The notes: a model not told the origin generated them from the letters alone. A stretch of 64,000 nt of DNA from Rhodoferax sp. OV413 (GCA_943371745.1 CALRWE010000001.1:14290-78289), one strand, 5' to 3'; positions 18,534 through 44,744 are shown, numbered from the stretch's first letter. Translations and numbers: made by a program.

Positions 18534-18791
18534 ATGGCACAGAAAAAAGGCGGCGGCTCTACGCGAAATGGGCGCGATTCCAAGCCCAAAATGCTCGGTG
18601 TTAAGAAATTCGGTGGCGAACTGGTCAGCTCGGGAGCAATCATTGTTCGCCAGCGTGGTACCAAGTTCCACCCCGGAAACAACGTTGGCATCGGCAAGGA
18701 TCACACACTGTTTGCACTGGTTGATGGCAACGTTTTGTTCGCTATCAAAGGCGCACTGAACAAACACACAGTGAGTGTTGTTTCGGCATAA
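18534..18791 (+). CDS. rpmA: 50S ribosomal protein L27
   Basis: [16 protein letters not shown]...[10 protein letters not shown] is the canonical L27 sequence. Confidence 0.97.
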
Positions 18792-18815
18792 TCTGCTAGA
18801 AACTTTCAGTCAAGA

Positions 18816-18840
18816 CCCTGCGCCCTGCGCGGGGTTTTTC
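18816..18840 (+). terminator. Intrinsic terminator after rpmA
   Basis: The stem CCCTGCG / CGCGGGG (one G-U pair) has a 5-nt loop and is followed by T5. Confidence 0.6.
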
Positions 18841-18943
18841 GTTTGTGAAGTCTGACGCCGCTTTTGGTTCAATGCGAGGTTAGACGCACCGGCACAGACA
18901 ATGCTCTGTTACGGCATGGCGCAATAGCGACACAGCGCATTGA

Positions 18944-21162
<2,219 letters not shown>

Positions 21163-27525: not shown

Positions 27526-27592
27526 TGCTATGAAAATAAGCAGTCTTGCCATTTATATTCAATGGCTAGAGGGCATTTAGTCAATAAATAAA
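27526..27592. repeat. AT-rich intergenic repeat, copy 3 (between prfA and prmC)
   Basis: It contains tgctatgaaaataagcagtcttgccatttatattcaatggctagagggcatttagtcaataaataaa, including the inverted repeat gccatt/aatggc. Confidence 0.5.
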
Positions 27593-28693: not shown

Positions 28694-28893
28694 AGCGTCA
28701 AAAATTTTGGGGCAGTCTGGACTGAAGATGCGCGTGCGGCCCTGCTCGAGGGCGGCCATCCTGGCCGCAGAGGCGAAGCAGGCGGCATGCGCAAAACCAT
28801 TCCGCGAAGTATCGCACCTTGATTGGCTCTGAGCGCCGCCGCCAGGGCCCCGGCCGGGGAGATGGGCGGGTCTGTGTCCGATACACTCGCCAA

Positions 28894-30336
28894 ATGTCCT
28901 CCCTCTATATTGACCATTTCGGTTTACGAAAGCCCCCGTTTCAGATAACGCCTGATCTTGATTTCTTCTTTACTGGCGGGCGCAGGGGCGACATTTTGAC
29001 CGCGCTGCTTCACGTCGCGACCCATGACGAAGGCATCATCACCCTGGTGGCAGAAGTGGGCAGCGGCAAAACGCTGCTGGCGCGCTTGATGATCATGCGA
29101 CTGGACCCGCAGGTTTTTGCCATTTATCTGGCGAATCCATGCTTCAGCCGCGACGAGATCATTGCCGCTATTGCCCGGGACCTGGGTCTCACCGATTTGG
29201 CGACCAACATTGAAGGAAAGCTCGCCGCGCTGCAGCAGGAGTTGCTGCGCCGACACGCCCAGGGGCAGCGCGTGGTGCTCGTCATTGATGAAGCACACGC
29301 CATGCCCGTGGAGTCTCTCGAAGAAGTGCGCCTGCTCTCCAATTTGGAAACCGGTCAGCACAAACTGATCAACATCATGTTGTTTGGGCAGCCGGAGCTC
29401 GACGCCCTCCTGGCCGAACCCCGGTTGCGCCAGGTGCGCGACCGGGTCATCCATCGGTTTGAGCTGCGAGCGCTGCAGGCTGTGGAGGCCAACGCCTACA
29501 TTGACCACCGGTTAAGAGCCGCCGGCTGGCAGGGTGCGGGGCTTTTTTCAGCCAGTGCGATGACTCGTTTGGTCAAAGCCTCCGGGGGCCGTGCCCGGCG
29601 CATCAATTTGTTGGCCGACAAAGCGTTGTTGGCAGCCTATGCTCAGGGCTCCTTGACGGTTGAATTGCCCCACGTCGAAAGTGCCGTGCAGGAGTTACCC
29701 AATGGCGCCATGCACGCGGCAGACAAGGTGGGCAGGCGTCCATGGTCGATGCCTGGCCTGAGTGGGGTGCTGGCCGTATTCGTGACCGCCTCAGCGGTGG
29801 GTCTGCTGGGTTGGTACCTCAAAGGGGGGTCGAGCGAACCTGCCGACCAGGTCAAGCCTGTGGCGCTGGTGAATCCCAACACCGGACTGCCGACGGTTTC
29901 GGTCGCCAAGGGCATGGCTGGGCCTGGGCCCGTCCGCAACTCGAATCCTGCAGCCCGGCCGCCCCCAACAGAAGACAAACCCCTCTTGAAGCGGGCACCG
30001 CCAACCACTGGTACGCGGTCCCAAGAGGTGCTCGAACGCACGCAAACCCGGGTGTTGGAGACGCCGCTAATTGGCTATACTGTTCAGCTAGGTGCGTTCG
30101 AGACTATCGATGGTTTGGATCCTTATCTGACCCGAATGGGGGCTTGGCTTGACCCGTCCCAGATGTATGCGCAGTTCAGTGATTACAAGGGTAAAACTTA
30201 TATGGCGGTTTATTTTGGCAACTTCGGGTCAGCTGCGGAAGGCGCTCGTGCCATTCAGTCCTGGCCTCCCGCTGTAAGGGAAAATCGCCCATTGGTAAGA
30301 TCCTGGGCTAAAGTGAAACAGGAACAAACACCTTGA
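28894..30336 (+). CDS. ExeA/MshM/GspA-like AAA ATPase with TM segment and C-terminal SPOR domain
   Basis: The N-terminus [19 protein letters not shown] is typical of ExeA/MshM. It has the Walker A motif EVGSGKT and the Walker B motif [11 protein letters not shown] segment ([21 protein letters not shown]) and a Pro-rich linker follow. The C-terminal SPOR-like region is YTVQLGAFE...[18 protein letters not shown]. Confidence 0.8.
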
Positions 30337-30371
30337 CCCCGTCAATTACACGCACCGGTTTTTCCGGTTGC

Positions 30372-32204
30372 ATGCCTCACGTCTTGCGAGACGCAGGGTT
30401 GGTTTTGTTGGTTGTCGGCTTGACGGCCTGTGCGGCCCCGGCACCTCCAAAACTCTCCAGCCAGCACCTGCTCCCCGGCAACCTCGTCGCCGGGACCGTC
30501 CCGGACTTTGTCAACGCAGCTCCCCTGCCGCCGCCGCCCCGGCCAAGCGTGCGACAGGAGCTGTACAGCGTGGTCATGAAAAACGTCAGCGTGCAGGATT
30601 TGCTCTTTGCCCTGGCGCGGGATGCGAAGCTGAATGTAGACATCCACCCCAGCATCAGCGGCTCGGTCACCATGAATGTGCGTGACCAGACCTTGACTGA
30701 AATCCTGGACCGGGTGGCCCGCCAGGTCGACCTGCGGTACGAAGTCAACGGTATGAATTTATCCATACTGCCCGACTCCGCTTACCTCAAGCACTACCGG
30801 GTCGACTACCCCAATGTCCAGCGGGACGCCAAGTCCAGCATTGTGACCTCGACCAACGTGGCCAGTACTGGCGGCAGCGGCAGTGGTGGTGGCGGCAACG
30901 CTTCAACTTCGTCGATTGACAGCACCTCCAACAACCGGTTTTGGGTCACGTTAAACAGCAATCTGGTCGATTTGTTGCGGGAAACTGACAAACTCAGTCC
31001 TGAAGCGGGCAGGCCCACCGCGCCAGGGCAGGCCGGCCAAAGCGCCCCAGGGCAAGCACCCAGCCCGGCCTTGCCTGCGCCGTTGTCCGCGGCCGGGTCT
31101 GCTTTGGCCGCAGCTTCTGGAGGCGCCACAGCTCCGCTGGCAGCAGCGAGCGCCGCTGTGCCACGCAGTATTTTCCGCGAGGCAGCGTCGGTTATTTCCA
31201 ACCCGGAGACCGGTGTCATCAGCGTGCGTGCAACGCAAAGTCAACATGCCAAAGTGGGTGATTTTTTGTCCCGGGTGCTCAGTTCGGCGCGGCGTCAAGT
31301 GCTCATCGAGGCCACGATTGTCGAGGTGGACCTGTCCAATCGGTTTCAGCAGGGCATTGACTGGTCGCTGCTGCAAACGGCGGGCGCAAATGCGGGCTCG
31401 GGCATCGTCATCCGTCCCACGGGGGGGGGCACCAATGGTCTGCAAACCGGGGGTGTGGTCAGTTCAATTGCTTCGGTGGGCTTCAAGCAATTTCGCCTTT
31501 GGAACGGTGACACGGACCTGTCTGCCATGCTGAGCCTGCTTGAATCGTTTGGAACCCTGAAGGTTCTCTCCAGCCCCAAGGTATCGGTTTTGAACAACCA
31601 GAGCAGCGTCTTGAAGGTGGTGGACAACAAAGTCTATTTCACCATCTCGGTTACGCCCGGTACGGCGGCCACAGCGACAACCGCTGCCACGCCAGCCATC
31701 TACACAACAGACATCAAAACCGTGCCGATTGGTTTCTTGATGACCGTCGTCCCACAAATCAGTGAGAGCAGTGAAGTCACCCTGAACCTTCGCCCCACCA
31801 TCAGCCGCATCACAGGCTACGCCACTGACCCCAACCCCGTGCTGGCCCAAAACAACCTGGTCAACCGTATTCCCGAGGTGCAAACCCGTGAAATGGAATC
31901 GGTGTTGCGCGTGCAGTCGGGTGAGATCGCCATACTGGGTGGACTGATGCAGGACAGTCGCAACAACAACACAGACGGCGTGCCGGGCCTGAACCAGCTC
32001 TCAGTGTTCGGTGAGTTGTTCAAGTACCGCAATGACAGCACCAGCAAATCTGAACTGGTCATTTTTCTGCGGCCCACAGTGCTCAGGGATGCCAGCCTGA
32101 ACGCTGACTTCAAGGATTTCCGGGGTCTGCTTCCCAGCTCTGTTGATACGCCGCTGCCGGATGACAGTCCATTGCGAATGACGCTCCCGTACCCCCGGAA
32201 TTAG
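30372..32204 (+). CDS. Secretin, lipoprotein type (MshL/PilQ/GspD superfamily)
   Basis: It has a lipobox (LLVVGLTAC). The secretin C-domain motifs are VLSSPKVSVLNNQ..., VPGLNQLSVFGELFKYRNDSTSKSELVIFLRPTV. A Gly/Ser and Ala/Pro low-complexity linker is present. An alternative TTG start at 30333 overlaps the upstream stop. Confidence 0.88.
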   Translation: MPHVLRDAGLVLLVVGLTACAAPAPPKLSSQHLLPGNLVAGTVPDFVNAAPLPPPPRPSVRQELYSVVMKNVSVQDLLFALARDAKLNVDIHPSISGSVTMNVRDQTLTEILDRVARQVDLRYEVNGMNLSILPDSAYLKHYRVDYPNVQRDAKSSIVTSTNVASTGGSGSGGGGNASTSSIDSTSNNRFWVTLNSNLVDLLRETDKLSPEAGRPTAPGQAGQSAPGQAPSPALPAPLSAAGSALAAASGGATAPLAAASAAVPRSIFREAASVISNPETGVISVRATQSQHAKVGDFLSRVLSSARRQVLIEATIVEVDLSNRFQQGIDWSLLQTAGANAGSGIVIRPTGGGTNGLQTGGVVSSIASVGFKQFRLWNGDTDLSAMLSLLESFGTLKVLSSPKVSVLNNQSSVLKVVDNKVYFTISVTPGTAATATTAATPAIYTTDIKTVPIGFLMTVVPQISESSEVTLNLRPTISRITGYATDPNPVLAQNNLVNRIPEVQTREMESVLRVQSGEIAILGGLMQDSRNNNTDGVPGLNQLSVFGELFKYRNDSTSKSELVIFLRPTVLRDASLNADFKDFRGLLPSSVDTPLPDDSPLRMTLPYPRN

Positions 32205-32206
32205 AC

Positions 32207-33763
32207 ATGAGCCTGCTTCTTGACGCCCTTAACCGCGCCAGCCGGGACAAAGCTGCTGCTGAAGCCCCGTCCGACCCTCTGGCTGTTGGCGCCGTGGTGC
32301 CCGCTGCACCGCCCTTGGCTTTTGAATCCCAGGCTTCGCCGGTTCCAAGCGAGCCTCTGCCGTCAGCCACCAAAACGCCTGACTGGCCGTCGCTGGAGCC
32401 CTTGGAGTTCACGGTGACCTTGCCGGAGAAACCCGCTGCGCCCAGGCCGGAGACCCCGGCCCCGCCTCCAGCGAAGCTTGGCCCCGTGGCCTTGTCGCTG
32501 ACCCCCAAGGTCCCCGATATGGCTGTCAAGCCTGCCCCGCCAGCCCCGGCCGATCCCATGCCGGCAGAGCCCCCCTTGGTCGCAGTTGCAGAGCCGGCTC
32601 CTGGATTTGCCGGGGCATCCTCACCCGCCGTCGATGCTGGACGCCGGACAAAACCCCTTGGTGGTGAGCGTGCTGCGCAAAACATCGTGCGCGCCAAGGA
32701 AATTCCCGCGAGCAAAAAAAAGCAAGGCGTTGGGGCGTGGGTTGCCGTGGTGCTGGTCCTCGTTCTGGGTGCGGGCCTGTCCAGCGTGTTCCTGGGAGTG
32801 GGGGGCGACCCGATGGCGTGGATGAAGTCGCTGGGGTTGGGCCAACCCAGCCTCCAGGCGACGGGTGTGCCCGCGCCTGCCGGCGTACCCGCCGGCGTAC
32901 CCGCCGGGGAGGCGCCCGCAGTGTCACCGCCGGATCTGCCAGTCGCTGCGGTGGTCATGGCCCCTGCAACCCCCACCCCCGTGTCACGGTCAGTGCCTTC
33001 ACAAAAAACACCGGTGAAATCAGCCGCCTCCGCGCCGCCCGGCAAGGATCAGCGCAAGCTTGACGGCGGTTCAGTCCCGGCCAGAACCTGCCCACCCGGG
33101 ACTGTGCCGCCCGACTGCCTGCCGTCTGGCACGGACCAGCAGGCCGGTCTGCAAAGTCGCATCAGCGGGCCTTCCACCCTGGAATTGGGCTACGCTGCGC
33201 TGACCCGGGGGCAACTGCAAGAGGCGACCAAAGCCTACGAGCAAGCCTTGGTCCAAAACCCGGAAGAGCGCGATGCGTTGCTGGGGCTGGCCTATATCGC
33301 GCAGCAACAAAGCCGTCAAGACGAGGCCTTGTCACTGTACAAACGGGTGTTGCGGCAGGAGCCAGACAACGCCACAGCCCGCACCGGGGTGTTGACACTC
33401 ACCATGCTGGGTGATGCACAGGATTTTGGCAGCCGGTCCCGCGAAGTGGTCGATCAAAACCCGGATTCCGCTGAGGCGCAATCGATCCTGGGTCACGCCC
33501 TGGTTCGTCAGGAACGGCTCGCCGATGCCCGGTTGGCGTTTGCCAGGGCGTTGCAACTTGAGCCCCAGGTGGCACGCCACGCCTTCAACCTGGCAGTGGC
33601 TTTTGACCGCCTGCACAACTACGATGAGGCACGCCGGTTTTATGAGTTGACTGCCAATTTGGTGAAGAAGCCGGGTTCAGAGCGGTCAAGTGGCGTTGCA
33701 CTGCGTGATGTGCTTGTGAGGCTGGAGCAGCTTCGCTCAGCCCAGCAGGCTGGTCTCCAGTAA
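32207..33763 (+). CDS. Bitopic TPR-repeat protein (MshN-like architecture)
   Basis: The N-terminus is MSLLLDALNRASRDK (GspB/MshN-like). It has a long Pro/Ala-rich region, one TM (WVAVVLVLVLGAGLSSVFLGV) and C-terminal TPR repeats (ALLGLAYIAQQQSRQDEALSLYKRVL..., AEAQSILGHAL...). Confidence 0.7.
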   Translation: MSLLLDALNRASRDKAAAEAPSDPLAVGAVVPAAPPLAFESQASPVPSEPLPSATKTPDWPSLEPLEFTVTLPEKPAAPRPETPAPPPAKLGPVALSLTPKVPDMAVKPAPPAPADPMPAEPPLVAVAEPAPGFAGASSPAVDAGRRTKPLGGERAAQNIVRAKEIPASKKKQGVGAWVAVVLVLVLGAGLSSVFLGVGGDPMAWMKSLGLGQPSLQATGVPAPAGVPAGVPAGEAPAVSPPDLPVAAVVMAPATPTPVSRSVPSQKTPVKSAASAPPGKDQRKLDGGSVPARTCPPGTVPPDCLPSGTDQQAGLQSRISGPSTLELGYAALTRGQLQEATKAYEQALVQNPEERDALLGLAYIAQQQSRQDEALSLYKRVLRQEPDNATARTGVLTLTMLGDAQDFGSRSREVVDQNPDSAEAQSILGHALVRQERLADARLAFARALQLEPQVARHAFNLAVAFDRLHNYDEARRFYELTANLVKKPGSERSSGVALRDVLVRLEQLRSAQQAGLQ

Positions 33764-33829
33764 GAGCCCCATCAAGCGCAACCGTGCCCAAACTGCCTGC
33801 CTTTGACTGCCCACTAAATTGAACTGACC

Positions 33830-35548
33830 GTGACTACCGATCCCACTCTTCAGACGCAGCCTGCGATTCGGCTGGGGGACAAATTGGTCGAATTGGGCTT
33901 GGTTTCCCAGGACCAGTTGCGAATCGCACTTCAGGAGCAAAAAAACACCGAAAAACCTTTGGGTGAGATATTTTTGCTCCTGGGTTTTGTCACGGAAGAA
34001 GCCATGCGCGCCGCGCTGGCAGACAAGCTGGGCGAAGAAGCCATCAGCCTCAAAGGCATCGTGGCCGACCCCAACGCGCTGGCGCTGGTGTCCAAGGCCC
34101 TCGCCAGGCGGCTGATGCTGTTTCCTGTCAGTCTGGACCACCAAAACAATACGTTGATCGTCGCAAGTCCCAATCCTCACGACATTGTGGCCACTGATCA
34201 ATTGAATTCACTTCTGATGGGCGGTCCACGCCCGCTGTGGCGCCTGGCCAGCAGTGCCGAGGTGCTGGGCGCCATTGAGCACTTTTATGGGCATGAGCTC
34301 TCGATTGACGGCATCTTGCAGGAGCTTGAAACCGGCACCATTGACATGACCAGCTTGTTGCAAGAGGCTGACGGTTACAGCCATCCCGTGGTGCGTTTGA
34401 TTGATGCTTTGCTCGCGGATGCCACCTTGCGCGGCGCATCAGACTTGCATTTCGAGCCCGAAATGCAGTTTTTGCGCATTCGCTATCGCATCGATGGCGT
34501 TTTGCGGCAAGTCCGTGTCTTGCACATGCGTTACTGGTCAGCCATGGTCGTGCGGCTTAAAGTGATCGCAGGCATGAATATTGCCGAAACACGGGCACCA
34601 CAGGACGGTCGTATTTCTTTGTCCATTTCAGGCCGTGCTGTTAGTTTCCGCTCCGCGGTGCAGCCCACCATTCACGGTGAAAACTTTGTCCTGCGCATCC
34701 TGGATCGCAAAAGCGGCATTGTTCCCATCACTGGCCTGGGGCTCTCGGAGCCGCAACTCAACGTACTGCAGCTTATGCTGTCCCGGCCCGAAGGCATTTT
34801 GCTGGTGACCGGACCGACTGGCTCGGGGAAAACCACCACGCTCTATTCCATTTTGGGTCACCTCAACAGCGAGGGGGTCAACATCATGACCCTGGAAGAC
34901 CCGGTTGAATACCCCATGCCGCTCATCCGGCAGACCTCGCTGTCCGATGCCGTCAAAATGGACTTTGCCGAAGGCATTCGCTCCATGATGCGGCAAGACC
35001 CCGACATCATCCTGGTGGGTGAAGTGCGGGACAAAGACACGGCAGAGATGGCGTTTCGGGCCGCGATGACCGGTCACCAGGTGTTCTCCACTTTGCACAC
35101 CAATTCGGCTATTCGCTCGATTCCGCGCTTGATTGACATGGGTATTGAGCCCAATGTGCTGGCCGGTAATGTCATTGGCATCGTGGCCCAGCGCCTGGTC
35201 AGGGCCTTGTGCAATGCCTGCAAGCAGCCTTACGACCCCAGTCCGGTCGAGGTCCAGTTGCTCAAGTTGAAGGCCAATGAATCCCTCTCCCTGTACCGGG
35301 CGGTGGGGTGCCAGGCCTGTGAGAACCGGGGCTTCAAGGGCCGCCTGTCGATAATGGAGCTGCTCAAGTTCGATGCTGTGCTTGATGACATGGTGACTGA
35401 GCGGGCGAGCCTCAAAGCCATGAGCGATTATTTGCAGAAGAAGGGCTTTGTGACGATGGCTGAAGACGGCATGCGCCGTGTGCGCGCTGGCATGACCACG
35501 CTTGAGGAAGTGGGGCGCGTGGTCGACTTGACCGAGTGGCTTGACTGA
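33830..35548 (+). CDS. GspE/PilB-family secretion ATPase with N-terminal MshEN-type domain
   Basis: It has the Walker A motif GPTGSGKTT, EDPVEY, the Walker B motif DPDIILVGEVRD and the His box TGHQVFSTLHTN. The tetracysteine motif is CNACK...GCQACENRGFKGR. The N-terminus carries RLGDKLVELGLVSQDQLRIALQEQ. A GTG start is assumed. Confidence 0.92.
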   Translation: MTTDPTLQTQPAIRLGDKLVELGLVSQDQLRIALQEQKNTEKPLGEIFLLLGFVTEEAMRAALADKLGEEAISLKGIVADPNALALVSKALARRLMLFPVSLDHQNNTLIVASPNPHDIVATDQLNSLLMGGPRPLWRLASSAEVLGAIEHFYGHELSIDGILQELETGTIDMTSLLQEADGYSHPVVRLIDALLADATLRGASDLHFEPEMQFLRIRYRIDGVLRQVRVLHMRYWSAMVVRLKVIAGMNIAETRAPQDGRISLSISGRAVSFRSAVQPTIHGENFVLRILDRKSGIVPITGLGLSEPQLNVLQLMLSRPEGILLVTGPTGSGKTTTLYSILGHLNSEGVNIMTLEDPVEYPMPLIRQTSLSDAVKMDFAEGIRSMMRQDPDIILVGEVRDKDTAEMAFRAAMTGHQVFSTLHTNSAIRSIPRLIDMGIEPNVLAGNVIGIVAQRLVRALCNACKQPYDPSPVEVQLLKLKANESLSLYRAVGCQACENRGFKGRLSIMELLKFDAVLDDMVTERASLKAMSDYLQKKGFVTMAEDGMRRVRAGMTTLEEVGRVVDLTEWLD

Positions 35549-36747: not shown

Positions 36748-36754
36748 GACCGCC

Positions 36755-38233
36755 ATGAAGACCGTCCTTCACATCTCAGCGGCTGACGCGCAATATTGGC
36801 GCCAAAACGCGCGGGGCTGGCAACCCTGTGACGATGCCGGGTCTGGCCCCCTGTGGGTGGTGATCAACCTGCCTGAAGAAGGTTTTTTTGAAATTCAAGT
36901 GCCGGTTTTGTTCGGTCGCGATCGAAAAAACTATGTTCAAAGGCAACTCGACAGCCGGTTCCCCGACACTCCTTACCGCACCGTGTTAACCCCAGCGGGC
37001 AGTGGCAGCTTGATGGATCGCCTGGCGCCCCCGTTGCAAACCATTTTTGGTGTGGATGCTGCGCCGCGTTTGAGTGCGCTCATCGCGGGCGCAGGAACGG
37101 CACCTATCGCCGGCGTTTGGGCCACGTCCATGCTGTTGGCTCGCCTGGGTGGTCACAAAGCGCTGCCCAGCGAGTTATTTGTGGCGCTGCCCGGGGCGGG
37201 TGCGCTGAGAATCGTTTACCTGAAAAACCGCGTCCCGGTGTTCAGCCGCCTCATTCCGGGCGTGACCGAGGCGGCCAATATGGCCGACGAAATCACGCGC
37301 ACCGTGCGCCACCTTGAAAACACCCACGTGCTGGAGCGTTCTACTGCATTGCGTAACGTGCTTTTTCTTCACAATGAGACCGACATCGACCCTTGGCTGG
37401 CGCAAGAACGCTTGTCACGCGTGCCCGCCCCACCGCCTTGGCGCTCAGCCGCACCCGCTGACTGGCGATTTGCGCTGTTTGACATGGCGGTCAGCTCACC
37501 GCCCGGCCAGTTGGCACCGCTGGCGCAACGCACCCGGTTTGTGGCCAGCAAGTTGCGGCCTCGGATCTACGCTGCAGCGGCATTGTGTGTGGTGCTGGGG
37601 GCCTGGGCCACTGCTGGCAACCTCAGCGAGGTTGCCAGTGGCTACACCAGCCTGGCGCAGGCCGGGAGCAGCACGGACCAACTCAACAGCCAGATCAGTG
37701 ATGTGGAGCAGAAAGTTGCCAGTTTTGGGGTCTCGTCCGAGGTTGTTCAAAGCGCCGTGGCGCTGGATCAGGGTGAAATCGCCGCAGCGCCTTCGCTGGC
37801 CCGGCACATGGTCCAGCTCTCGGGTATCGTCACTGCCCTTGAGTCGGTGCGCCTGAACCAGCTGGGTTGGCGTATCCTTGACTCGGGCAAGGAGGGTTGC
37901 AGCCAAAGCGCGGCCACCACACCCGTGCCCACCACCGCAGAGGCGGGGGCTGCTGCAGCCGTTCCCGAGCGGCGCGTTGAAATCAATTTTGGCGTGGTCT
38001 GGCCTGCCAGCCAGAGCGACAGAGCGCGCGCCCAGGACATCAGCAACCTGTCTGCCAGGGTGTCAAAAATGGACGGCGTCCATCTGCTGATCGATCCCGC
38101 CCAGGCGCTCGCCCGGGGCAAGCTCACCGGCGGAGGCGCCGTGGCCGACAACTCAAGTCTTGATGCACAGTCCTGGTGCCTCACCTTGCCTGGCAGCGGT
38201 GGCGTCAACCCGGGGCTCGCCAAACATGAATGA
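36755..38233 (+). CDS. Hypothetical bitopic protein; possible GspL / fused PilM-PilN analogue (inference only)
   Basis: It is 492 aa and I recognise no motif. It has a cytoplasmic region of about 270 aa, a single TM (IYAAAALCVVLGAWATAGNL) and a periplasmic region of about 200 aa with a coiled-coil-like start. Its position is directly after the platform gene and before a PilO/GspM-like gene. Confidence 0.4.
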   Translation: MKTVLHISAADAQYWRQNARGWQPCDDAGSGPLWVVINLPEEGFFEIQVPVLFGRDRKNYVQRQLDSRFPDTPYRTVLTPAGSGSLMDRLAPPLQTIFGVDAAPRLSALIAGAGTAPIAGVWATSMLLARLGGHKALPSELFVALPGAGALRIVYLKNRVPVFSRLIPGVTEAANMADEITRTVRHLENTHVLERSTALRNVLFLHNETDIDPWLAQERLSRVPAPPPWRSAAPADWRFALFDMAVSSPPGQLAPLAQRTRFVASKLRPRIYAAAALCVVLGAWATAGNLSEVASGYTSLAQAGSSTDQLNSQISDVEQKVASFGVSSEVVQSAVALDQGEIAAAPSLARHMVQLSGIVTALESVRLNQLGWRILDSGKEGCSQSAATTPVPTTAEAGAAAAVPERRVEINFGVVWPASQSDRARAQDISNLSARVSKMDGVHLLIDPAQALARGKLTGGGAVADNSSLDAQSWCLTLPGSGGVNPGLAKHE

Positions 38234-38834
38234 CTGGAAAATCATCGCCCGGCTGGCGCGGCGCAGCCTGTTGGCGCTTTCTGTATCAATCTTGCTGGTG
38301 CTCGCCCTGTACCACGGCAGCGCTTTACTCAAAGACCGCCAGGCCAGCCAACTGATGGAGACCAATCAGCAGATGAGCTCACTCCAGGGCCGTTTGACGC
38401 AAAGGCAAGCTGATCTTGCCAACATGCAGGCACAGGCCGGGCGTTTCCGTCAACTGAGCGAACAGGGTTTGCTTGGCGCTGCGGACAGAGCGGGGTGGGT
38501 TGACCAACTGAAGGCCAGTGTCGCCCGCACAGGGCTGCCACTTGACGCACTGCGCTACACCTTGCAAGAGCCCCAAGCCCTGGCCTCGTCGGGTTCCGGT
38601 GCCACGGATGCGGTTGCCCTGAGCGCCGGGCCCAACATTCACAATCTGGACTTTGAATTGAAGAATATCCATGAGCAAGACCTCCTGTCCTTGCTGCACG
38701 ACTATAGGGCGAATGTGAGGGGATTATTCAGGGTGCAAGCCTGCACTTTCTCGGAGCCGAATGATTCCGGCTTGTCGGCACGATGCACCTTGCGGTTTTT
38801 CAATTTGCCAGATGAAAAGCCGGGTCAGGCCTGA
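38226..38834 (+). CDS. Hypothetical bitopic coiled-coil protein; PilO/GspM/MshJ-like architecture (inference)
   Basis: It has an N-terminal TM (LLALSVSILLVLALY) and then a coiled-coil (QQMSSLQGRLTQRQADLANMQAQAGRFRQL). The ATGAATGA overlaps the upstream stop. Confidence 0.45.
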   Translation: MNDWKIIARLARRSLLALSVSILLVLALYHGSALLKDRQASQLMETNQQMSSLQGRLTQRQADLANMQAQAGRFRQLSEQGLLGAADRAGWVDQLKASVARTGLPLDALRYTLQEPQALASSGSGATDAVALSAGPNIHNLDFELKNIHEQDLLSLLHDYRANVRGLFRVQACTFSEPNDSGLSARCTLRFFNLPDEKPGQA

Positions 38835-38861
38835 CGGCTCCCATTTCTGACCAGCGAACCC

Positions 38862-39368
38862 ATGCCTGATCTCCAGACTTTGTCCATGTTCTTCCTTTTG
38901 TTTCGTCACCGCCAAGCTGAGCCGCCTCGCTTGCACCGGCATGGCTGCGTACCCACTCGCGCCCTGATGGGCTTGTTTGGTCTGCTGTGCCTGCTGACAG
39001 CGCACGCGGCGGAGGTGACCCCTGTGCCGGGTGAGCCTCTGCAAACGCTTTTTTATTCGGCCTCTGAGCGCAGTGCAATTGACCGCATCCGCTCGGGCAG
39101 TGGGCCTGAGGGCGCGCCCAACCTGCCCCAGGTAGTCCATGTCAATGGCATTGTCAAGCGTCAGGGGGGCGGCAGCACCGCGTGGCTCAATGGCTTGCCG
39201 GTGCGCGACGGGGACGCGATTGCGCCTGATCAACGAGTGCTCACCATCGACGGGGGTGTCCGTCTCAATGGTGTGCCCGTGAAGGTGGGGGAGGCGCTGG
39301 ACCTCAAGACCCAGGCGCGCCAGGACGTGGTGGCGCCGGGTGCTGTGACGGTGCGTGCCAAAAAATAA
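38862..39368 (+). CDS. GspB/MshK-like small envelope protein
   Basis: It has a hydrophobic segment or signal (MGLFGLLCLLTAHAAEV). The C-terminal part VHVNGIVKRQGGGSTAWLNGLPVRDGDAIAPDQRVLTIDGGVRLNG resembles the GspB C-terminal domain pattern. The start is uncertain (38862 or 38967). Confidence 0.5.
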   Translation: MPDLQTLSMFFLLFRHRQAEPPRLHRHGCVPTRALMGLFGLLCLLTAHAAEVTPVPGEPLQTLFYSASERSAIDRIRSGSGPEGAPNLPQVVHVNGIVKRQGGGSTAWLNGLPVRDGDAIAPDQRVLTIDGGVRLNGVPVKVGEALDLKTQARQDVVAPGAVTVRAKK

Positions 39369-39391
39369 GACAATACCCCCAGTACAGCACC

Positions 39392-39634
39392 ATGGCATCG
39401 CCCCCCCCAAAAACGCTGCTGCAACGGCATCGCAGCAAATCAATGCGCCGGCGCATGAGTCTGATCGTCGGGCTGTGCCTCTTGATCACCGGCTATGCGC
39501 TGTTGGCCGTGAGCCCTAACACCCCCACCGACTGGGTGATGCTTCGTGTGGTGGGGGGGTTTGCTTTGTTGTTTGTGGGCTTTGCGACTGCAATTTCTCC
39601 CTTTTTGGCCGGATTGGTGGGTGACGATGAATGA
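39392..39634 (+). CDS. Small 2-TM membrane protein, unknown function
   Basis: It is 80 aa with an Arg-rich N-terminus and two hydrophobic helices. Its 3' end overlaps the response-regulator start by 8 nt. Coding status rests on context only. Confidence 0.4.
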   Translation: MASPPPKTLLQRHRSKSMRRRMSLIVGLCLLITGYALLAVSPNTPTDWVMLRVVGGFALLFVGFATAISPFLAGLVGDDE

Positions 39635-40262
39635 CAAGGCCATGGCCTCGGGGCTGCTGCCCGACACCGTCCTGGTTGTGGAGGATGACCCTGCACTGTG
39701 CGCCTATCTGGTGTCTTCGCTGCAAGATGCCGGCTTCACGGTGCATCACGCCCATGACCGCTTGCAAGCGAGTCGTTTTTTCAATGCACCCCAGCCACCG
39801 GCCTTGGTATTGCTTGATCTGGGCTTGCCGCCCCATGCCAGCACGCTGACGGAAGGCGTGGCCGTGCTGGAGCTGGGCTTGCAGCGTAGCCCAAGCAGCA
39901 AATTTATTGTGTTGACGGGGCAGGATGAAGAGGCCGCCGCGCTGGAGGTGGTGCGCAAAGGCGCATTTGACTTCCTGGTCAAGCCCGCGGCCATGGCCGC
40001 GATCTTGGCTGCCCTGAGGCGTGCGCAATTGTTTGTGTGCCAGGAAAACCGGCTTGCCCTGCTCGGTGAAGCGCGGCTCTTCTTGACAACCCGGCTTGAT
40101 GAAGGTCCCAAACAAGCTGCTTCCAACGCCGAGGAGCAGCTGCTGCGCCGCGTTCTGGCGGCTACGGAGTACAACGTGGCAGAGTCCGCCCGGCAGCTGG
40201 GCTTGGCCCGTGAGCACGTTTACTACTACCTGAACAAGTATGGCATTCAGCGCCCTGGCTAG
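39627..40262 (+). CDS. Response regulator: REC domain + Fis-type HTH, no sigma-54 AAA+ module
   Basis: It has the acidic pocket VVEDD, the phosphoacceptor context LVLLDLGLPP and the conserved Lys FDFLVKP. The C-terminal HTH_8-like region is YNVAESARQLGLAREHVYYYLNKYGI. It is about 211 aa, too short for an NtrC-type central domain. Confidence 0.85.
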   Translation: MNDKAMASGLLPDTVLVVEDDPALCAYLVSSLQDAGFTVHHAHDRLQASRFFNAPQPPALVLLDLGLPPHASTLTEGVAVLELGLQRSPSSKFIVLTGQDEEAAALEVVRKGAFDFLVKPAAMAAILAALRRAQLFVCQENRLALLGEARLFLTTRLDEGPKQAASNAEEQLLRRVLAATEYNVAESARQLGLAREHVYYYLNKYGIQRPG

Positions 40263-41358
40263 CCTGTCGCTGGTGATGGTGATTGGCGGGATATGCCTGC
40301 TGATCATCAGCATGGTGTTGACCCGCCGCTTGCGTCGCCACAATGCCAATTTGCAGGCCCTGCTGCACATTGGCACACGCAATCTGGAGCCGCTGGCCAT
40401 TGCGGGCGTGGCCTGGTCGATTCTTGCGGGTGCGGGTTGGCGTGAACTGGTCATGCGCGGTGACTGGTTTGGCCACCCCATTCACAGTGTGTTTGGTGGC
40501 CCCAAGGGCGGGGGAGCCATGTCGTCGTCAAGCCAGACCTTGTTGTTCCAGATCAACAGCAGTGCCGATGTGCACCTGACCCTGCAGCTCATGCACCCCC
40601 GGGGGCAGGGCGAGCGCTGGCTGTTGGCAGAGCAACTGGCGGGTGTTTTTGCGCTCCTGCTGGAAACCAGCTTGCGCATGCGCACCGAGGCGCTCTCGGC
40701 CGCGCTGGCAGAGCGCGCCCGTTTGTCTCTGTATTTGCAGCATGACATGCGCAACCTGGCGCAGTGGGTCAGCTGGGTGGGGGCTGACTTTGCAGCCTGC
40801 ACGAGCGAAGAGGATTTGCTGCGCCTGGCCAGACGTTTGCAGGACAACGCGCCCCTGGCGCAAGAGCGTGCGCTGCGGCTGATCAGCGCGCTGGGCCAAC
40901 GCCCCACCGAAGACCAGCCGGCCTCCATCGATCTGACCCAGGCCGTGACCCAGGCGGCCCATCTGGCGGGTATTGAAATAGAGGTTGCGGGGCAGGCCCA
41001 GGGCTGGATCGCCAAAAGCCTGCTGCTGCGCGCGCTGGACAACCTGTTCTCCAACCTGGCGCCCAACTGGCGTGAGGCGGTGCAGGCACGACCCGTAGTA
41101 CAGTTGCGGCGCATGGCAACCCTTGCATCACAACCCGCCCGGGTTGAAATGCTTTTTTTCAGCCCTTTGCCTCCTGGCGCCGGGCAGATCGCGCCGGAGA
41201 AGTTGTTTGAGCCCTTTGCCAGTGGTCGCCCCGGCGGCTTGGGTCTGGGCTTGTACCAGGCGCGCCAGAGCCTGCGCGAGGCGGGTGGTGACTTGCAGGC
41301 CAGCTCGTCTCCGGGCGGGGTCAGCTTTGCGCTGGAGATTTTGGCAGACGCACCGTAA
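40240..41358 (+). CDS. Sensor histidine kinase (2 N-terminal TM, HisKA + HATPase_c)
   Basis: It has the H-box LYLQHDMRNLAQWV, the N-box-like LRALDNLFSNLAPN and the G2-box GGLGLGLYQAR. It overlaps the RR 3' end by 23 nt. Confidence 0.8.
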   Translation: MAFSALASLSLVMVIGGICLLIISMVLTRRLRRHNANLQALLHIGTRNLEPLAIAGVAWSILAGAGWRELVMRGDWFGHPIHSVFGGPKGGGAMSSSSQTLLFQINSSADVHLTLQLMHPRGQGERWLLAEQLAGVFALLLETSLRMRTEALSAALAERARLSLYLQHDMRNLAQWVSWVGADFAACTSEEDLLRLARRLQDNAPLAQERALRLISALGQRPTEDQPASIDLTQAVTQAAHLAGIEIEVAGQAQGWIAKSLLLRALDNLFSNLAPNWREAVQARPVVQLRRMATLASQPARVEMLFFSPLPPGAGQIAPEKLFEPFASGRPGGLGLGLYQARQSLREAGGDLQASSSPGGVSFALEILADAP

Positions 41359-41462
41359 ACTTTTTTCACTGTGACGAGCGTTGTTCCCGCCCTAGAATTC
41401 TCCCCTGAAGGTATCGGGCTCATGTCGGGTTCGACCTCAAGTCCAACACGAAGGAAAAATTC

Positions 41463-42155
41463 ATGAAACACCGCAGTTTGGCCCGTCAATCGGGTTTTAC
41501 ACTGGTTGAAATCGCCATTGTTCTGGTCATCATCGGCTTGCTGCTGGGTGGTGTGCTGAAGGGGCAGGAGCTGATTGAGAACTCCAAGGTCAAGAATGCA
41601 GTCGCCGACATGAACGGCATCAGTGCCGCCACGAACACTTATGTGGATCGCTTCAAGCGCGTACCCGGCGATGATGGTCCTATCGGCACATTGACTGCTC
41701 GGGGTGGTGCATGGTTAACTGCAGGTATTACTGCCGGTGGCAACAATGGCGCCCTGTCAGTGGCGGCAGGTAATACATATACACTGGTTGCTGGTGAAAG
41801 TACGGCTTTCTGGCAACACCTGAAAGCGGCTGGTCTAATCGCTGGTAATCCTGGTGCCACTGCGACCGCAGATTTGCTTCCTCGCAATGCCTTCAATGGA
41901 TTTATCGGCGTTGTAGCTGGCGTAACGCCAGCTGCGAACACTACTGGCTATAACGGTAACTCGGTTTGTTTGTCTCAAGTGCCCGGCAAGGCTGCTCGTG
42001 CGATTGATGCGCAACTGGACGATGGCATCACGGACGCTGGATCAGTCCGTGCGACTCTGAGCGCCATCTCGACAAATACAGCACCGGGCACAGCGGTACT
42101 TGCCGCTGCTGGCTATATTGACACCAATTACTATACAGTTTGTAAATCGCTTTGA
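41463..42155 (+). CDS. Prepilin-type protein, probable major pilin of the locus
   Basis: It has a class III signal: MKHRSLARQSG|[19 protein letters not shown] with Glu at +5. A C-terminal Cys pair (C169...C227) is present. A strong terminator follows immediately. Confidence 0.85.
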   Translation: MKHRSLARQSGFTLVEIAIVLVIIGLLLGGVLKGQELIENSKVKNAVADMNGISAATNTYVDRFKRVPGDDGPIGTLTARGGAWLTAGITAGGNNGALSVAAGNTYTLVAGESTAFWQHLKAAGLIAGNPGATATADLLPRNAFNGFIGVVAGVTPAANTTGYNGNSVCLSQVPGKAARAIDAQLDDGITDAGSVRATLSAISTNTAPGTAVLAAAGYIDTNYYTVCKSL

Positions 42156-42186
42156 TTTGCCACGGGTAGTTTTTAATTGAGAGCAG

Positions 42187-42209
42187 AAAACCCGCTTCGG
42201 CGGGTTTTT
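42187..42209 (+). terminator. Intrinsic terminator after the major pilin gene
   Basis: The sequence is AAAACCCGC-TTCG-GCGGGTTTTT, a GC stem with a TTCG tetraloop and a T5 run. Confidence 0.85.
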
Positions 42210-42512
42210 CTATAAGAAATATATTGAAAGGCTTGGAAGTATGGAAGGCTGTTTCAAGATGTTTTTTTTAGATCCACCACCGAGAAGGGCATTGCTTGCC
42301 CGGTTGCAAAAATGGTAAATGATCTTGTCAGCACGAACTTTGATGGCCAGTATGGCACCTGAGGCCTTTGAATCAAGATGTATTCGAGCCAAGTCAGGCG
42401 CAGCTGCGGTAAGCCAGCTTGGAGTCGCCTTGGCAAGGTCGGAGCCGCGGGCTCGATTTGAATGCCACAGGCAAGTATTGCTTACTTTCAAATGGCAAGT
42501 AATATCACGCCC

Positions 42513-43406
42513 ATGACTTACCGCAGAATCACACTTTTCCCTGTCCGTCTGGCGCGGTGCAACGCGGCTGGGTTTACTCTGGTCGAAATGGCGGTAGTGA
42601 TCACGCTGATGGCGATCTTCGCCACCATGGGGCTGCGTTTGCTGCAAGCCACCCGTGACAGCGCGGCTTGGACCGAGACCAAAACCAAACAAGAGCGCAT
42701 CAAGCTGGCGCTCGTTGGGTATTTGCGCAGCAACGGGACCTTGCCCTGCCCAGATTCCACGGCGGTGGGCATCGCGCCCACGGGCCTCAAGGGCACGTCG
42801 CCCTGCCTGGGTGCTTTGGGCACCGGTGTGGTACCGTGGAAGGATCTGGGCTTGTCGGTGGCTGATGTGCAAGACGGGTGGTCCAATTTTTTCACCTACC
42901 GTGTCGCCAACCGCACCCCTGTCACCAGCAGCAACTGGACCACCAAGCTGTCGGCTCAAAACGCCTTCAGCATCAACGAACTCACCGTACCCTTGGCAAC
43001 GTTTTCACTGAAAGAGCGTGACGCTGCTGGCGTACTCAGTGCCACGGCCCTGTCGCCTCAACCCGTGGTAGTGCTGGTGTCGCATGGCAAAAATGGCTCG
43101 GGCGCCCGAACCCTTGGCGGCAGCCGCCTGGCCGCGCCGCCTGTCGGTTCGGACGAGCGTTTCAATGCCGATGCGGTTACCGAATTCATCAGCCGCGCAC
43201 CCACCGATGTGGTTGGCACGGGCGGCCTGTTTGACGATCTGGTGGCCTACATGACCCCGCAGGACTTGCTGCAGCCTTTGATGACGGAGGGTGCGCTCAA
43301 GGCCTGTGTGGCGTATTGCCCACCACCGCCCGGAGGCGGAACTGCTGTGGCGGGTTGCGTCCCGGCCAACATCCCGATTGGCGTGACACCTTTGGCGTGT
43401 CCGTAG
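42513..43406 (+). CDS. Large prepilin-type protein (minor pilin candidate)
   Basis: The leader is MTYRRITLFPVRLARCNAAG|FTLVEMAVVITLMAIF. The mature part is about 280 aa with several Cys (LPCP..., ACVAYCPPPPGGG...CVP...LACP). The start is uncertain (42462, 42492 or 42513) and none has a good Shine-Dalgarno. Confidence 0.7.
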   Translation: MTYRRITLFPVRLARCNAAGFTLVEMAVVITLMAIFATMGLRLLQATRDSAAWTETKTKQERIKLALVGYLRSNGTLPCPDSTAVGIAPTGLKGTSPCLGALGTGVVPWKDLGLSVADVQDGWSNFFTYRVANRTPVTSSNWTTKLSAQNAFSINELTVPLATFSLKERDAAGVLSATALSPQPVVVLVSHGKNGSGARTLGGSRLAAPPVGSDERFNADAVTEFISRAPTDVVGTGGLFDDLVAYMTPQDLLQPLMTEGALKACVAYCPPPPGGGTAVAGCVPANIPIGVTPLACP

Positions 43407-43441
43407 ACCTTGATCGATCATTTGTTTTACCTGAGGATTTC

Positions 43442-44089
43442 ATGAAAACCAACCTAAGCAAACAACGTGGCTTTACGCTGGCCGAGATGGCCATTGTGGT
43501 GGTGCTGGGCGGCATTTTGCTGGCAGCAGGTCTGTTGGCTGGGCGGGGGCAAATCAGCCGGGCGCAAACGCAGGAGGTGCTGCAAATGGCGGCTGATCTG
43601 CAAACTGCCTCAGCCGGTTTCAGGCAACGCTATGGCTACTTGCCGGGGGATTTCCCTTCAGCCGTGACCTTGTTGCCACCGCCCTACAACGTCAACGGTA
43701 GCAGCACACTTGGTGACAGCCTGATTGATGGCACCATAGGCGCAACTGGTCTGGCCACGGCCGGTACTCAAGTGGCCTTGGCGCCTGAGCAACTTTATGC
43801 CGCAGGCTTGATTGGCAAGCTCGGCACCAACACCCTAATGCGCCTGCAATCCCAATTCGGCGCGGTTCATATGGCCGTGGCCAATACCGCCAACACCAGC
43901 GCGGTGTATGTAGCTGACAACCCAGCGGTCAGGAATGTCATCATTTTCTTCAACCTGCCGTGTGAGGTGGTGTACGAAGTGGATAGAGCCTTGGACGACG
44001 GTAATCGCATCACAGGCCGGTCCAGGTCGGCTGCTGCTTTGGATTGCGCACCGGATAGCACTGTGGCGCGCTACCTTGTTCCCCTGTAA
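43442..44089 (+). CDS. Prepilin-type protein (pilin paralog)
   Basis: It has MKTNLSKQRG|FTLAEMAIVVVLGGILL and the C-terminal CEVVYEVDRALDDGNRITGRSRSAAALDC motif, shared with two other pilins here. Confidence 0.8.
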   Translation: MKTNLSKQRGFTLAEMAIVVVLGGILLAAGLLAGRGQISRAQTQEVLQMAADLQTASAGFRQRYGYLPGDFPSAVTLLPPPYNVNGSSTLGDSLIDGTIGATGLATAGTQVALAPEQLYAAGLIGKLGTNTLMRLQSQFGAVHMAVANTANTSAVYVADNPAVRNVIIFFNLPCEVVYEVDRALDDGNRITGRSRSAAALDCAPDSTVARYLVPL

Positions 44090-44135
44090 TGCCGCGACCC
44101 CTCGGCACAACCAGCCTTTGACTGCCGCTGCAGCC

Positions 44136-44744
44136 ATGAGCCGCCGCCCTTCACGCACCCAGGGCTTTACCTTGGTAGAGATTGCTATTGTGCTTGCGAT
44201 CACTGGGTTCCTGATGTTCGGCATACTAAATTCACGGTCCGTGGTTCGCCAAGCCCAAACCAAGGACATCGTCAAAGGGGTAGGCGAGATGGCCACTGCG
44301 GCCCAGCAGTTTCGGGATCGTTACGGTGCGTGGCCCGGTGATTTGATCGCGGGTCCAGCCATGTTGCCCAATTTGACGGCAACATGCATTGGCAATGGCA
44401 ATGGGGCCATCGACACCGCTCTGGAGTCCAGCTGCGCCAGCGAGGCACTGATTCGGGCCTCGATGCTGCGCGGCGACGCTGGCGCGCCGATTGTCGTGGT
44501 TAGACAGGTGACGTTGAGTTTGACCAACCGTGCTTCTGCCGTCTTGCTGGCTGGCCTGGGCGCACTGCCTACTGGCTGGAACAATGTGGTGCGGGTGCAA
44601 AACATTGATTGCGATGTGGCGATCCAGCTTGACCGCGCGCTGGATGATGGCAGCACGGCCACCGGCAATTTTCGAACCGGTACGGTGTGTCTGGGTCAGG
44701 ACGAGAACACGGCAGTGGCCAACGCGGTGTTGAAGCTCAATTAA
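44136..44744 (+). CDS. Prepilin-type protein (pilin paralog)
   Basis: It has [10 protein letters not shown]|[19 protein letters not shown] and the C-terminal [27 protein letters not shown] motif. Confidence 0.8.

Follow-up and report, generated by a model that had tools for sequence, protein, structure and literature searches.

A conserved MSHA-like type IV filament cassette with sequence-orphan components and an embedded kinase-regulator pair in Rhodoferax sp. OV413

What kind of machine is encoded by the plus-strand genes at positions 28894-44744 of a 64,000-nucleotide stretch of the genome of Rhodoferax sp. OV413 (GCA_943371745.1, CALRWE010000001.1:14290-78289), and how does it relate to the type IV filament systems already described? 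We refer to the whole stretch as the window, in whose coordinates the positions of the Rhodoferax locus are given, and to the block of genes as the cassette. An initial annotation, made from the sequence alone, had read the cassette as a self-contained type IV filament locus resembling both the mannose-sensitive hemagglutinin (MSHA) pilus and a type II secretion system (T2SS), with an embedded two-component system. The domains, predicted folds and affinities to MshM, MshL and MshG reported here bear out this description. Our best explanation, which we hold with moderate confidence, is that the cassette encodes a complete outer-membrane-spanning MSHA-like type IV filament machine, most probably an adhesive pilus that depends on cyclic di-GMP (c-di-GMP).

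We fixed the gene set from three sources, namely our own reading of the open reading frames (ORFs) and the genes called for an identical contig (L031, Logan ERR9580612) and for the homologous locus L043. On this basis, the interval 28894-44744 (+) is an unbroken, tightly packed run of 15 plus-strand genes (g01-g15), in which all ORFs are intact and translational coupling is preserved. The initial annotation had counted sixteen genes, which we correct to 15, the number to which its own list also sums. The candidate for a sixteenth gene, a 65-aa ORF at 42319-42516, was rejected, as it overlaps the start of g13 and at least one homologous locus (L011) has no space for such a gene. The overlapping or near-touching gene boundaries described earlier were found again: g04 and g05 share a TGATG junction (1-nt overlap), ATGAATGA forms an 8-nt overlap both at g06/g07 and at g09/g10, where it couples g09 to the response regulator gene here as well as in L043, and the response regulator and kinase genes (g10/g11) overlap by 23 nt. 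Overlaps of 8 and 23 nt were seen again in L043. The TTGA junction reported for g01/g02 holds if g02 starts at TTG 30333, but not if it starts at ATG 30372, the start called in L031, which leaves a 35-nt gap. Profile searches against Pfam and NCBIfam, which had been proposed as a check, assigned domains to 11 of the 15 proteins: AAA_22, Secretin, tetratricopeptide repeats (TPR), T2SSE with MshEN, T2SSF, Response_reg with HTH_8, a weak HATPase_c and four N_methyl matches.

The first five genes encode the components of secretin assembly and the motor, and here the first reading (an ExeA/MshM-like AAA ATPase, a lipoprotein secretin, a TPR protein, a GspE-type ATPase and a GspF platform protein) agrees with the domain calls throughout. 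As references, we used the msh locus of Aeromonas caviae (L038), the gsp locus of E. coli (L039), a Comamonas T2SS, the xcp system of P. aeruginosa, and pilBC from Acinetobacter and from the window itself. The product of g01 (28894-30336, +; start as in L031) is an AAA+ ATPase of the MshM/ExeA type (residues 1-270; AAA_22, 97 bits in Pfam), followed by a single transmembrane segment at about residues 288-306 (hydropathy scan) and a C-terminal periplasmic SPOR domain. Its residues 4-267 are 41% identical to A. caviae MshM (E 3e-61), and BLAST found no match between g01 and E. coli GspA. SPOR (PF05036) was found in 19 of 19 g01 homologs (best E 4e-8); the isolated C-terminal domain of g01 passes the gathering score of the family (21.6 bits, cutoff 21), and the profile matches the SPOR domain of DamX (2lfv, E 6e-4). 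The secretin, g02 (30372-32204, + with the ATG start called in L031; the longest ORF begins at TTG 30333), carries the lipobox LVVGLTAC, as read from the sequence, and matches Secretin with 124 bits (Pfam). Its top secretin model is that of MshL (TIGR02519), which it covers in full at 246.2 bits, just below the cutoff of 250.2, while the GspD and PilQ models of NCBIfam score 165 and 116 bits. Among the reference proteins, MshL also scores above GspD (130 vs 95 bits), with 30% identity to the Aeromonas protein. At the position of MshN, g03 (32207-33763, +) encodes a membrane-anchored TPR protein with a single transmembrane segment at about residues 179-197 (hydropathy scan) and a Pro/Ala-rich linker, which matches TPR families in Pfam and resembles Aeromonas MshN at the level of the TPRs only.

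The extension ATPase g04 (33830-35548, +) belongs to the GspE/PilB/MshE superfamily (T2SSE, 412 bits in Pfam) and starts with an MshEN domain, which is predicted from its motifs to bind c-di-GMP. The protein scores 63.9 bits with the c-di-GMP motif model NF053729 (cutoff 38), and its N-terminal domain matches MshE-N (5HTL) with an E value of 1e-13. Two motifs of 24 residues each lie in tandem in the domain, with 5 residues between them: the first, RLGDKLVELGLVSQDQLRIALQEQ, fits the strict pattern and the second, PLGEIFLLLGFVTEEAMRAALADK, the relaxed pattern of PMC5013675; both are largely conserved across the related loci described below. The inner-membrane platform protein g05 (35548-36747, +) is a member of the GspF/PilC/MshG family (T2SSF, 161 bits in Pfam) and is closest to MshG among the references (MshG 201 bits, PilC 183 bits, GspF 144 bits).

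Four proteins of the cassette had been listed as poorly recognizable. For g06, g07 and g08, this holds in so far as they match no family in Pfam or NCBIfam, even at E<=10; three of the four nevertheless have counterparts at the level of architecture (MshI/GspL, MshJ/PilO and, probably, MshK/PilP), and the fourth, g09, was assigned to the two-component system. Sequence-based comparison was uninformative for this trio: 33 more distant relatives of g06 had no Pfam match either, hidden Markov model (HMM) profiles of g07 and g08 returned only noise from the sequences of PDB, and BLASTP against the Aeromonas msh locus left g06-g08 unmatched. Comparing profiles of all three with GspL, MshJ, MshK and GspC in hhalign gave probabilities below 4% (0.1% for g08 against E. 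coli GspC), which is a weak test considering that the targets were single sequences. We now turn to predicted structures. An AlphaFold2 model of g06 (36755-38233, +), built from an alignment of 32 homologs, has a mean predicted local distance difference test (pLDDT) score of 80.9; an actin-like domain at its N-terminus is followed by a long helix and, at the C-terminus, by an alpha/beta domain. In Foldseek, it matches the cytoplasmic domain of GspL (4pht_Y; template modeling (TM) score of 0.62, normalized on the target), PilM (5eou, 2ych, 3jc8) and FtsA. In other words, g06 as modeled has the architecture of GspL, or of PilM and PilN (MshI) joined in one polypeptide: a cytoplasmic actin-like domain, a membrane-spanning/coiled-coil helix and a periplasmic ferredoxin-like domain.

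Three of the related loci (L012, L019 and L027) have g07 and g08 as one ORF, and seven database proteins (P0270-P0276) show the same fusion; for these two proteins, a natural fusion was modeled (pLDDT 76.9). The g07 half comprises a transmembrane segment, a coiled coil and a ferredoxin-like domain and matches PilO in Foldseek (3jc8_Oa, E 1.2e-3; 2rjz_A, TM-score 0.58), in line with g07 (38226-38834, +) being a bitopic PilO/GspM (MshJ)-like protein with an N-terminal transmembrane segment, whose gene overlaps g06 as described. The other half, a helix with seven short strands, has a secondary structure compatible with PilP, and we regard g08 (38862-39368, +), a small exported or anchored beta-domain protein conserved in 27 loci, as a probable analog of PilP, MshK or the HR domain of GspC. 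The proteins at the g06, g07 and g08 positions are approximately 490, 200 and 170 aa long.

The last four genes encode prepilins, all of which have glycine at -1, phenylalanine at +1 and glutamate at +5 of the processing site. The major pilin, g12 (41463-42155, +; N_methyl 28.8 bits), has an 11-aa leader, a mature length of 219 aa and two C-terminal cysteines. It is 44-68% identical to its counterparts in most loci, and its match to the Msh pilins of Aeromonas is confined to the N-terminal 24-32 residues. It is followed by g13 (42462-43406, +; probable start ATG 42513; N_methyl 26.5 bits), a cysteine-rich minor pilin, and by two paralogs of g12, the minor pilins g14 (43442-44089, +; N_methyl 28.8 bits, 29% identity to g12) and g15 (44136-44744, +; N_methyl 25.7 bits, 32% identity to g12). 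A C-terminal motif, Cys ... D-x-x-LDDG-x4-G-x2-R, is common to g12, g14 and g15, and g14 also matches DUF7459 weakly (E 0.003). The initial annotation had placed a strong terminator between the major pilin and three further prepilins. The four N_methyl matches and a hairpin at 42186-42209, GAAAACCCGC-TTCG-GCGGGTTTTT, which with its T-run forms an intrinsic terminator at 42186-42212 (+; -17.6 kcal/mol, z -2.5), support that arrangement. This terminator was found by direct folding and had been missed by our consensus terminator scan, apparently since the T-run pairs into an extended stem; caution is needed wherever that scan gave a negative result. Upstream of g12, a consensus scan found a sigma70-type promoter, GTGACG-16-TAGAAT (41371-41398, +), preceded by an A/T-rich stretch that begins at the stop codon of the kinase gene. 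The same layout (GTAAA, an A/T-rich stretch, (T/C)TGAC(A/T), N17 and TA(C/T)A(T/A)T) recurs in the loci that carry the two-component system, and no sigma54 -24/-12 motif was seen upstream of g12 when reading the sequence.

Neither a PilT-like ATPase nor a dedicated prepilin peptidase was found inside the cassette by domain scans, as had been noted before. The lack of a peptidase is given as a rule for MSH loci (PMC6668835), and a prepilin peptidase is encoded elsewhere in the window: PilB, PilC and PilD lie at 13027-16889 (-), with PilD at 13027-13869 (-; A24_N_bact 117 bits, Peptidase_A24 95 bits in Pfam) in a housekeeping pilBCD locus. We infer that this PilD processes g12-g15 in trans. Domain scans of the flanking ORFs (approximately 11.6-28.8 and 44.7-56.5 kb) identified only housekeeping genes and pilBCD, and no PilT.

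Between the structural genes and the pilins lies a regulatory module. Its first gene, g09 (39392-39634, +), encodes an 80-aa protein that consists of a hairpin of two transmembrane segments with a basic N-terminus. It is 79-84 aa long in 22 loci, with a mean column identity of 61% over 20 aligned sequences, and was not detected in four loci without the response regulator and kinase. Based on this co-occurrence and on the gene overlap, we assigned g09 to the module as a putative two-transmembrane partner of the two-component system. The response regulator, g10 (39627-40262, +; 211 aa, as in the L043 gene call), joins a receiver domain (Response_reg, 59.8 bits) to a Fis-type helix-turn-helix (HTH_8, 21.2 bits, just below the cutoff of 22), and the domain scan found no sigma54-interacting AAA+ domain in it. 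The kinase, g11 (40240-41358, +), has a short membrane anchor and matches the C-terminal kinase core of PrsK (E 5e-11), with a weak HATPase_c match and an H-box that reads LQHDMRN. One strong transmembrane segment, at residues 9-27, leaves it virtually without a periplasmic loop in a hydropathy scan, which suggests a kinase of the intramembrane-sensing type. These matches support the earlier placement of a response regulator and a histidine kinase inside the structural operon. The pair is present as described, but it is less unusual than had been implied, considering the precedent of PilS-PilR (PMC6058289). The best NCBIfam match of g10 is the PrsR receiver (TIGR02915), at 95 bits against a cutoff of 502.6, and the scores for the PrsR, PrsK and associated ATPase equivalogs all fall below their cutoffs (TIGR02915, 95 vs 503; TIGR02916, 42 vs 300; TIGR03015, 198 vs 325). 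EmbRS of Rubrivivax (PMC3684757) was followed as a lead and dropped, as it concerns unrelated exopolysaccharide (EPS) clusters.

How widespread is this cassette? All 111 close homologs of g06 are annotated as hypothetical, and the organism labels among the named ones are Rhodoferax, Burkholderiales, Sulfuritalea and, once, Gammaproteobacteria; a profile search with g06 returned 1350 representative clusters at E<=1e-3, out of 1.84 billion. Taking one genome per species, we found 30 loci, all in metagenome-assembled genomes (MAGs) and mainly from uncultured Rhodoferax/Comamonadaceae of freshwater and wastewater. In nearly all 30, tblastn showed the same order: AAA+ ATPase, secretin, TPR protein, extension ATPase, platform protein, g06, g07, g08, in some cases extra pilins, g09, response regulator, kinase, major pilin and minor pilins. 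Protein identity across the loci lies between 35% for g06 and 83% for g04, with most genes present at full length. Because the same gene order recurs in about 30 other genomes, the cassette is far beyond what chance would assemble. The flanks are not common to the other loci, and the placement between hemA and prfA-prmC was seen only here and in L031. Split genes occur in L017, L018, L025, L028 and L029, mainly in contigs named "tig...", a naming that we take to indicate long-read assemblies, in which frameshift errors are common; we read the split genes in relatives as assembly errors rather than decay. Two outcomes had been named beforehand that would make the locus routine rather than novel, namely disruption in close relatives and a one-to-one match to a characterized operon. 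The locus in the window is intact, as are most of its relatives, and no one-to-one sequence match to a characterized operon was found, so that the cassette is neither a routine copy of such an operon nor a decaying one.

Several of the related loci deviate from the common layout. L012, L019 and L027 form a subtype without g01, g09, the response regulator and the kinase, in which g07 and g08 are fused and an extra 680-aa orphan protein is present. The latter also occurs in L037, a metagenome contig, with 40% identity and no Pfam match. A cysteine-rich orphan of 680-700 aa follows the g08 equivalent in L012 (12450-14492), L037 (8209-10314) and L006 (12705-14750, apparently frameshifted), and is not present in the window. 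The minor pilin g13 has an LPCPD...PWK region in common with this protein (BLASTP against the 680-aa protein of L012, E 6e-6), where it lies in the N-terminal part; given this resemblance, the orphan may be a tip or adhesin subunit. Two distant loci contain the core module, L037 and L036, the latter from Chitinibacter tainanensis; in both, an mla phospholipid-transport operon adjoins the core module, and in L036 an EPS cluster comes directly after it (L036, 1-3536 and 12614-20741; L037, 14535-17103). In L020, a second ATPase-platform pair (17111-19947), which groups with Aeromonas MshE/MshG in the tree described below, is located just downstream of the cassette; some Rhodoferax MAGs may thus carry a canonical MSH-like system beside it. 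Similar downstream ATPase matches, 34-37% identical to g04, were seen in L022 (from 20155), L024 (from 9243) and L025 (from 20592), outside that tree. A gene for a membrane-bound GGDEF protein (diguanylate cyclase) directly follows the major pilin gene in L043 (17062-17883), a MAG that looks complete, and in L018 and L029 the cassette is preceded upstream by a GGDEF-like stretch (approximately 700-1200). This linkage fits control by c-di-GMP but is anecdotal, being seen in L043, L018 and L029 only. L018 and L029 come from one MAG (Candidatus Egaibacter danicus) with two copies of the cassette on different contigs; in both copies there are many apparent frameshifts, due perhaps to errors of long-read assembly or to pseudogenes. 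Finally, one contig of a MAG labeled Akkermansia muciniphila (L016, CALPVM020000050.1) contains a cassette of the Rhodoferax type, with identities of 56-75% in g01-g05 and 35% in g06, and has probably been mis-binned.

Taken together, the parts suggest how the machine might work. PilD, encoded 15 kb away, would cleave and methylate the four class III prepilins, whose processing signals can be read directly. The ATPase g04 would dock on the g05 platform, and the actin-like domain of g06 would help to hold it there. Together, g06, g07 and g08 would form an alignment complex of the PilM/N-PilO-PilP type that reaches the secretin; for g06 and g07 this builds on the modeled folds, and for g08 and the interactions it is a proposal. 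The filament would exit through the g02 secretin, for whose assembly across the cell wall g01, binding peptidoglycan through its SPOR domain, and g03 would provide help. Similarly, ExeA, the AAA+ and peptidoglycan-binding protein of a T2SS, helps its secretin ExeD to assemble (PMC4098917). Binding of c-di-GMP to the MshEN domain of g04 would turn extension on, as in MshE of V. cholerae. By analogy to PilS-PilR, g09, g10 and g11 may sense a signal at the level of the membrane, possibly the pilin pool, and tune pilin transcription without sigma54. Its own promoter and terminator would let g12 be made in excess over the minor pilins, and retraction, if any, would rely on a PilT encoded elsewhere.

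Several observations weigh against an MSHA-like adhesive pilus. The first residue of the second MshEN motif of g04 is Pro, not Arg. Among the references, g04 is equidistant to MshE and GspE (341-347 bits; PilB 296), and its top NCBIfam score is with the GspE model (489.6 bits). In neighbor-joining (NJ) bootstrap trees of 13 systems, g04 and g05 are not nested in the MshE/MshG pair: with their relatives, including those from Chitinibacter and L037, they form a clade of their own, Aeromonas MshE/G pairs with the second system of L020 (100% bootstrap), and PilB/C and GspE/F each form own clades, a placement that is provisional given the small taxon sample and the use of NJ only. The trio g06-g08 has no detectable sequence similarity to MshI/J/K, GspL/M/C or any PDB chain, and the putative PilP-type fold of g08 comes without a structural match of its own, from secondary structure in the fusion model only. 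Lastly, the core module of Chitinibacter L036 has an EPS glycosyltransferase/flippase cluster directly downstream and no pilin gene nearby.

Part of this evidence would also fit a T2SS-like system, with a short pseudopilus in the periplasm, built from the four prepilin-type proteins, driving folded proteins or other cargo through the secretin. Like g04, g05 finds its top NCBIfam score in the T2SS (GspF, 288 bits); at least one c-di-GMP-binding MshEN ATPase has been assigned to a T2SS in P. aeruginosa (PMC5013675). This explanation keeps some weight because of the one-polypeptide GspL architecture of g06, whose highest target TM-score is with GspL, the AAA+/peptidoglycan-binding arrangement of g01, which mirrors the logic of ExeA (PMC4098917), and the pilin-free Chitinibacter context. 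All T2SS models of NCBIfam nonetheless score far below their cutoffs (GspD, TIGR02517, 165 vs 351; GspE, TIGR02533, 490 vs 630; GspF, TIGR02120, 288 vs 424; GspG, TIGR01710, 28 vs 89), the GspE/GspF references form a clade apart from g04/g05, and family searches of the cassette found neither a GspC (HR with PDZ or coiled coil) nor a GspK-like subunit lacking glutamate at +5. The major subunit, at 219 aa and with two C-terminal cysteines, is unlike the GspG precursor of E. coli (L039), which has 145 aa, and the secretin and AAA+ protein are closest to MshL and MshM, with g01 unmatched by E. coli GspA. Because of this large two-cysteine major pilin, the MshM and MshL affinities and the MshEN motif, we consider an adhesive pilus the likelier product and a secretion pseudopilus unlikely. 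We give slightly less credence still to a filament machine that serves mainly for something else, for example to take up DNA, or for surface display or export in connection with EPS and floc formation. The best NCBIfam matches of the response regulator, kinase, AAA+ and TPR proteins (PrsR, PrsK, TIGR03015 and PrsT) would tie the cassette to PEP-CTERM/EPS circuitry, as would the EPS cluster of Chitinibacter, and several host MAGs carry isolate names that we take to belong to a Danish wastewater-plant series. The PEP-CTERM family scores are, however, all far below their cutoffs, the response regulator lacks the sigma54 AAA+ domain that defines PrsR, and the EPS linkage was seen in one distant locus only. 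The flank scans gave only housekeeping genes, with no PEP-CTERM model at cutoff, in a survey that included no search aimed at PEP-CTERM, exosortase or ComEA/ComEC.

A recently acquired, silent or decaying locus without current function is, in our judgment, very improbable, although its surroundings and the split genes in five relatives (L017, L018, L025, L028 and L029) give some reason to consider it. In E. coli, hemA, prfA and prmC form one operon. The cassette separates hemA from prfA-prmC (26626-28759), so that the promoter of prfA must lie in the 135-bp divergent gap before g01, and its flanks differ from those of the other loci. At its other end, the stop codons of g15 (+) and hemA (-) overlap as TTAA (44741-44744), which leaves no space for a terminator. 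Against this stand the 15 intact ORFs with their preserved coupling, the gene lengths and order kept in about 30 species at 35-83% protein identity, the GC content of the cassette, which is like that of its flanks, and the concentration of split genes in "tig..." contigs, presumably frameshift-prone assemblies. A search of 27.5-46.5 kb against Rfam (E<=1) gave two sub-threshold chance matches only, and no c-di-GMP riboswitch.

The cassette matters for several reasons. Type IV filament classification rests on few model organisms, to which the cassette adds a coherent, conserved betaproteobacterial relative of MSH. Three of its structural proteins, as well as the 680-700-aa protein of related loci, escape family libraries, and automated annotation consequently leaves half of the cassette "hypothetical". 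The SPOR domain may stand in for the ExeA-type peptidoglycan anchor in secretin assembly, and the supply of pilin may be set by a kinase-regulator pair that works without sigma54 and has a small membrane partner. A c-di-GMP-gated adhesin in Rhodoferax-like hosts would also bear on aggregation and biofilm behavior. A bolder possibility, which we put forward only tentatively and think rather doubtful, is that the cassette stands for a distinct lineage within the type IV filament superfamily, as yet unnamed, equal in depth to MSH, the type IVa pilus (T4aP) and T2SS and, to judge from the 1350 clusters of g06 relatives, widespread in Betaproteobacteria. Such a lineage would be marked by an alignment complex made up of sequence orphans and by an ATPase for secretin assembly that is anchored through SPOR, along with a regulatory module made of a truncated PrsK/PrsR-type pair and a two-transmembrane co-sensor; in Comamonadaceae from wastewater and freshwater, it could connect c-di-GMP with the display of pili and with floc or EPS formation.

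Of the known systems, MSHA, a type IVa-derived pilus of Vibrio, Aeromonas (Bfp) and Shewanella, is the one that the cassette resembles most broadly. MSH, as defined by Denise et al. (2019), is a single locus without prepilin peptidase, with mshA, E, G, L and M as mandatory genes, and was previously known mainly from Gammaproteobacteria plus a few other groups (PMC6668835); according to PMC9815625, MSHA uses PilT in trans. The cassette is likewise a single locus without prepilin peptidase or PilT, which combines an MshM-type AAA+ protein, a lipoprotein secretin of the MshL type and a membrane-anchored TPR protein with an ATPase bearing the MshEN motif, a platform closest to MshG, and one major and several minor pilins. 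The sizes and order of g06-g08, and the folds of the first two, match MshI-MshJ-MshK. It differs in that the proteins at the I, J and K positions lack sequence similarity to these, that g01 has an additional transmembrane segment and SPOR domain, that a g09-regulator-kinase module is embedded and that the hosts are Betaproteobacteria. BLAST against the Aeromonas locus identified no counterparts of MshF, MshH, MshO, MshP or MshQ in the cassette. The gene order differs as well, as the initial annotation had stated with respect to the msh order of Vibrio: M-L-N-E-G-I-J-K-(two-component system)-pilins in the cassette, as opposed to I-J-K-L-M-N-E-G-F-B-A-C-D-O-P-Q in A. caviae.

With the T2SS, the cassette has in common a motor and platform of the GspE/F family, a GspL-like single polypeptide that joins the cytoplasmic and periplasmic sides, a GspM/PilO-like partner, and an AAA+ protein that, like ExeA, binds peptidoglycan through a domain on the periplasmic side. 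ExeA uses a PG_binding_1 domain for this purpose, which had no match in g01, where the peptidoglycan-binding module is SPOR. In contrast to the T2SS, the cassette has no GspC, GspK or GspN, carries a large cysteine-bearing pilin instead of GspG, and has a secretin without a GspD-level match. T4aP equivalogs also stay below their cutoffs (PilB, TIGR02538, 477 vs 676; PilQ, TIGR02515, 116 vs 284), while the PilB encoded elsewhere in the window passes TIGR02538 at 785 bits.

In PilS-PilR, a kinase and a response regulator control the major pilin gene, and PilS senses PilA (PMC6058289). The cassette shares the kinase-regulator pair, which lies immediately upstream of its major pilin gene, and a membrane-embedded kinase that is scarcely exposed to the periplasm, as would fit a sensor of signals inside the membrane. 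PilR, however, is an NtrC-type sigma54 activator, whereas g10 has no AAA+ domain and the promoter of the pilin gene resembles the sigma70 type; six transmembrane segments are found in PilS, whereas g11 has one or two and is accompanied by the separate two-transmembrane protein g09; and in sequence, the pair is closest to PrsK/PrsR rather than PilS/PilR. The cassette introduces no new principle, as known type IV filament machines contain a counterpart for each of its parts, and it appears, provisionally and judging from the NJ trees, to share the MSH definition in outline but not in clade.

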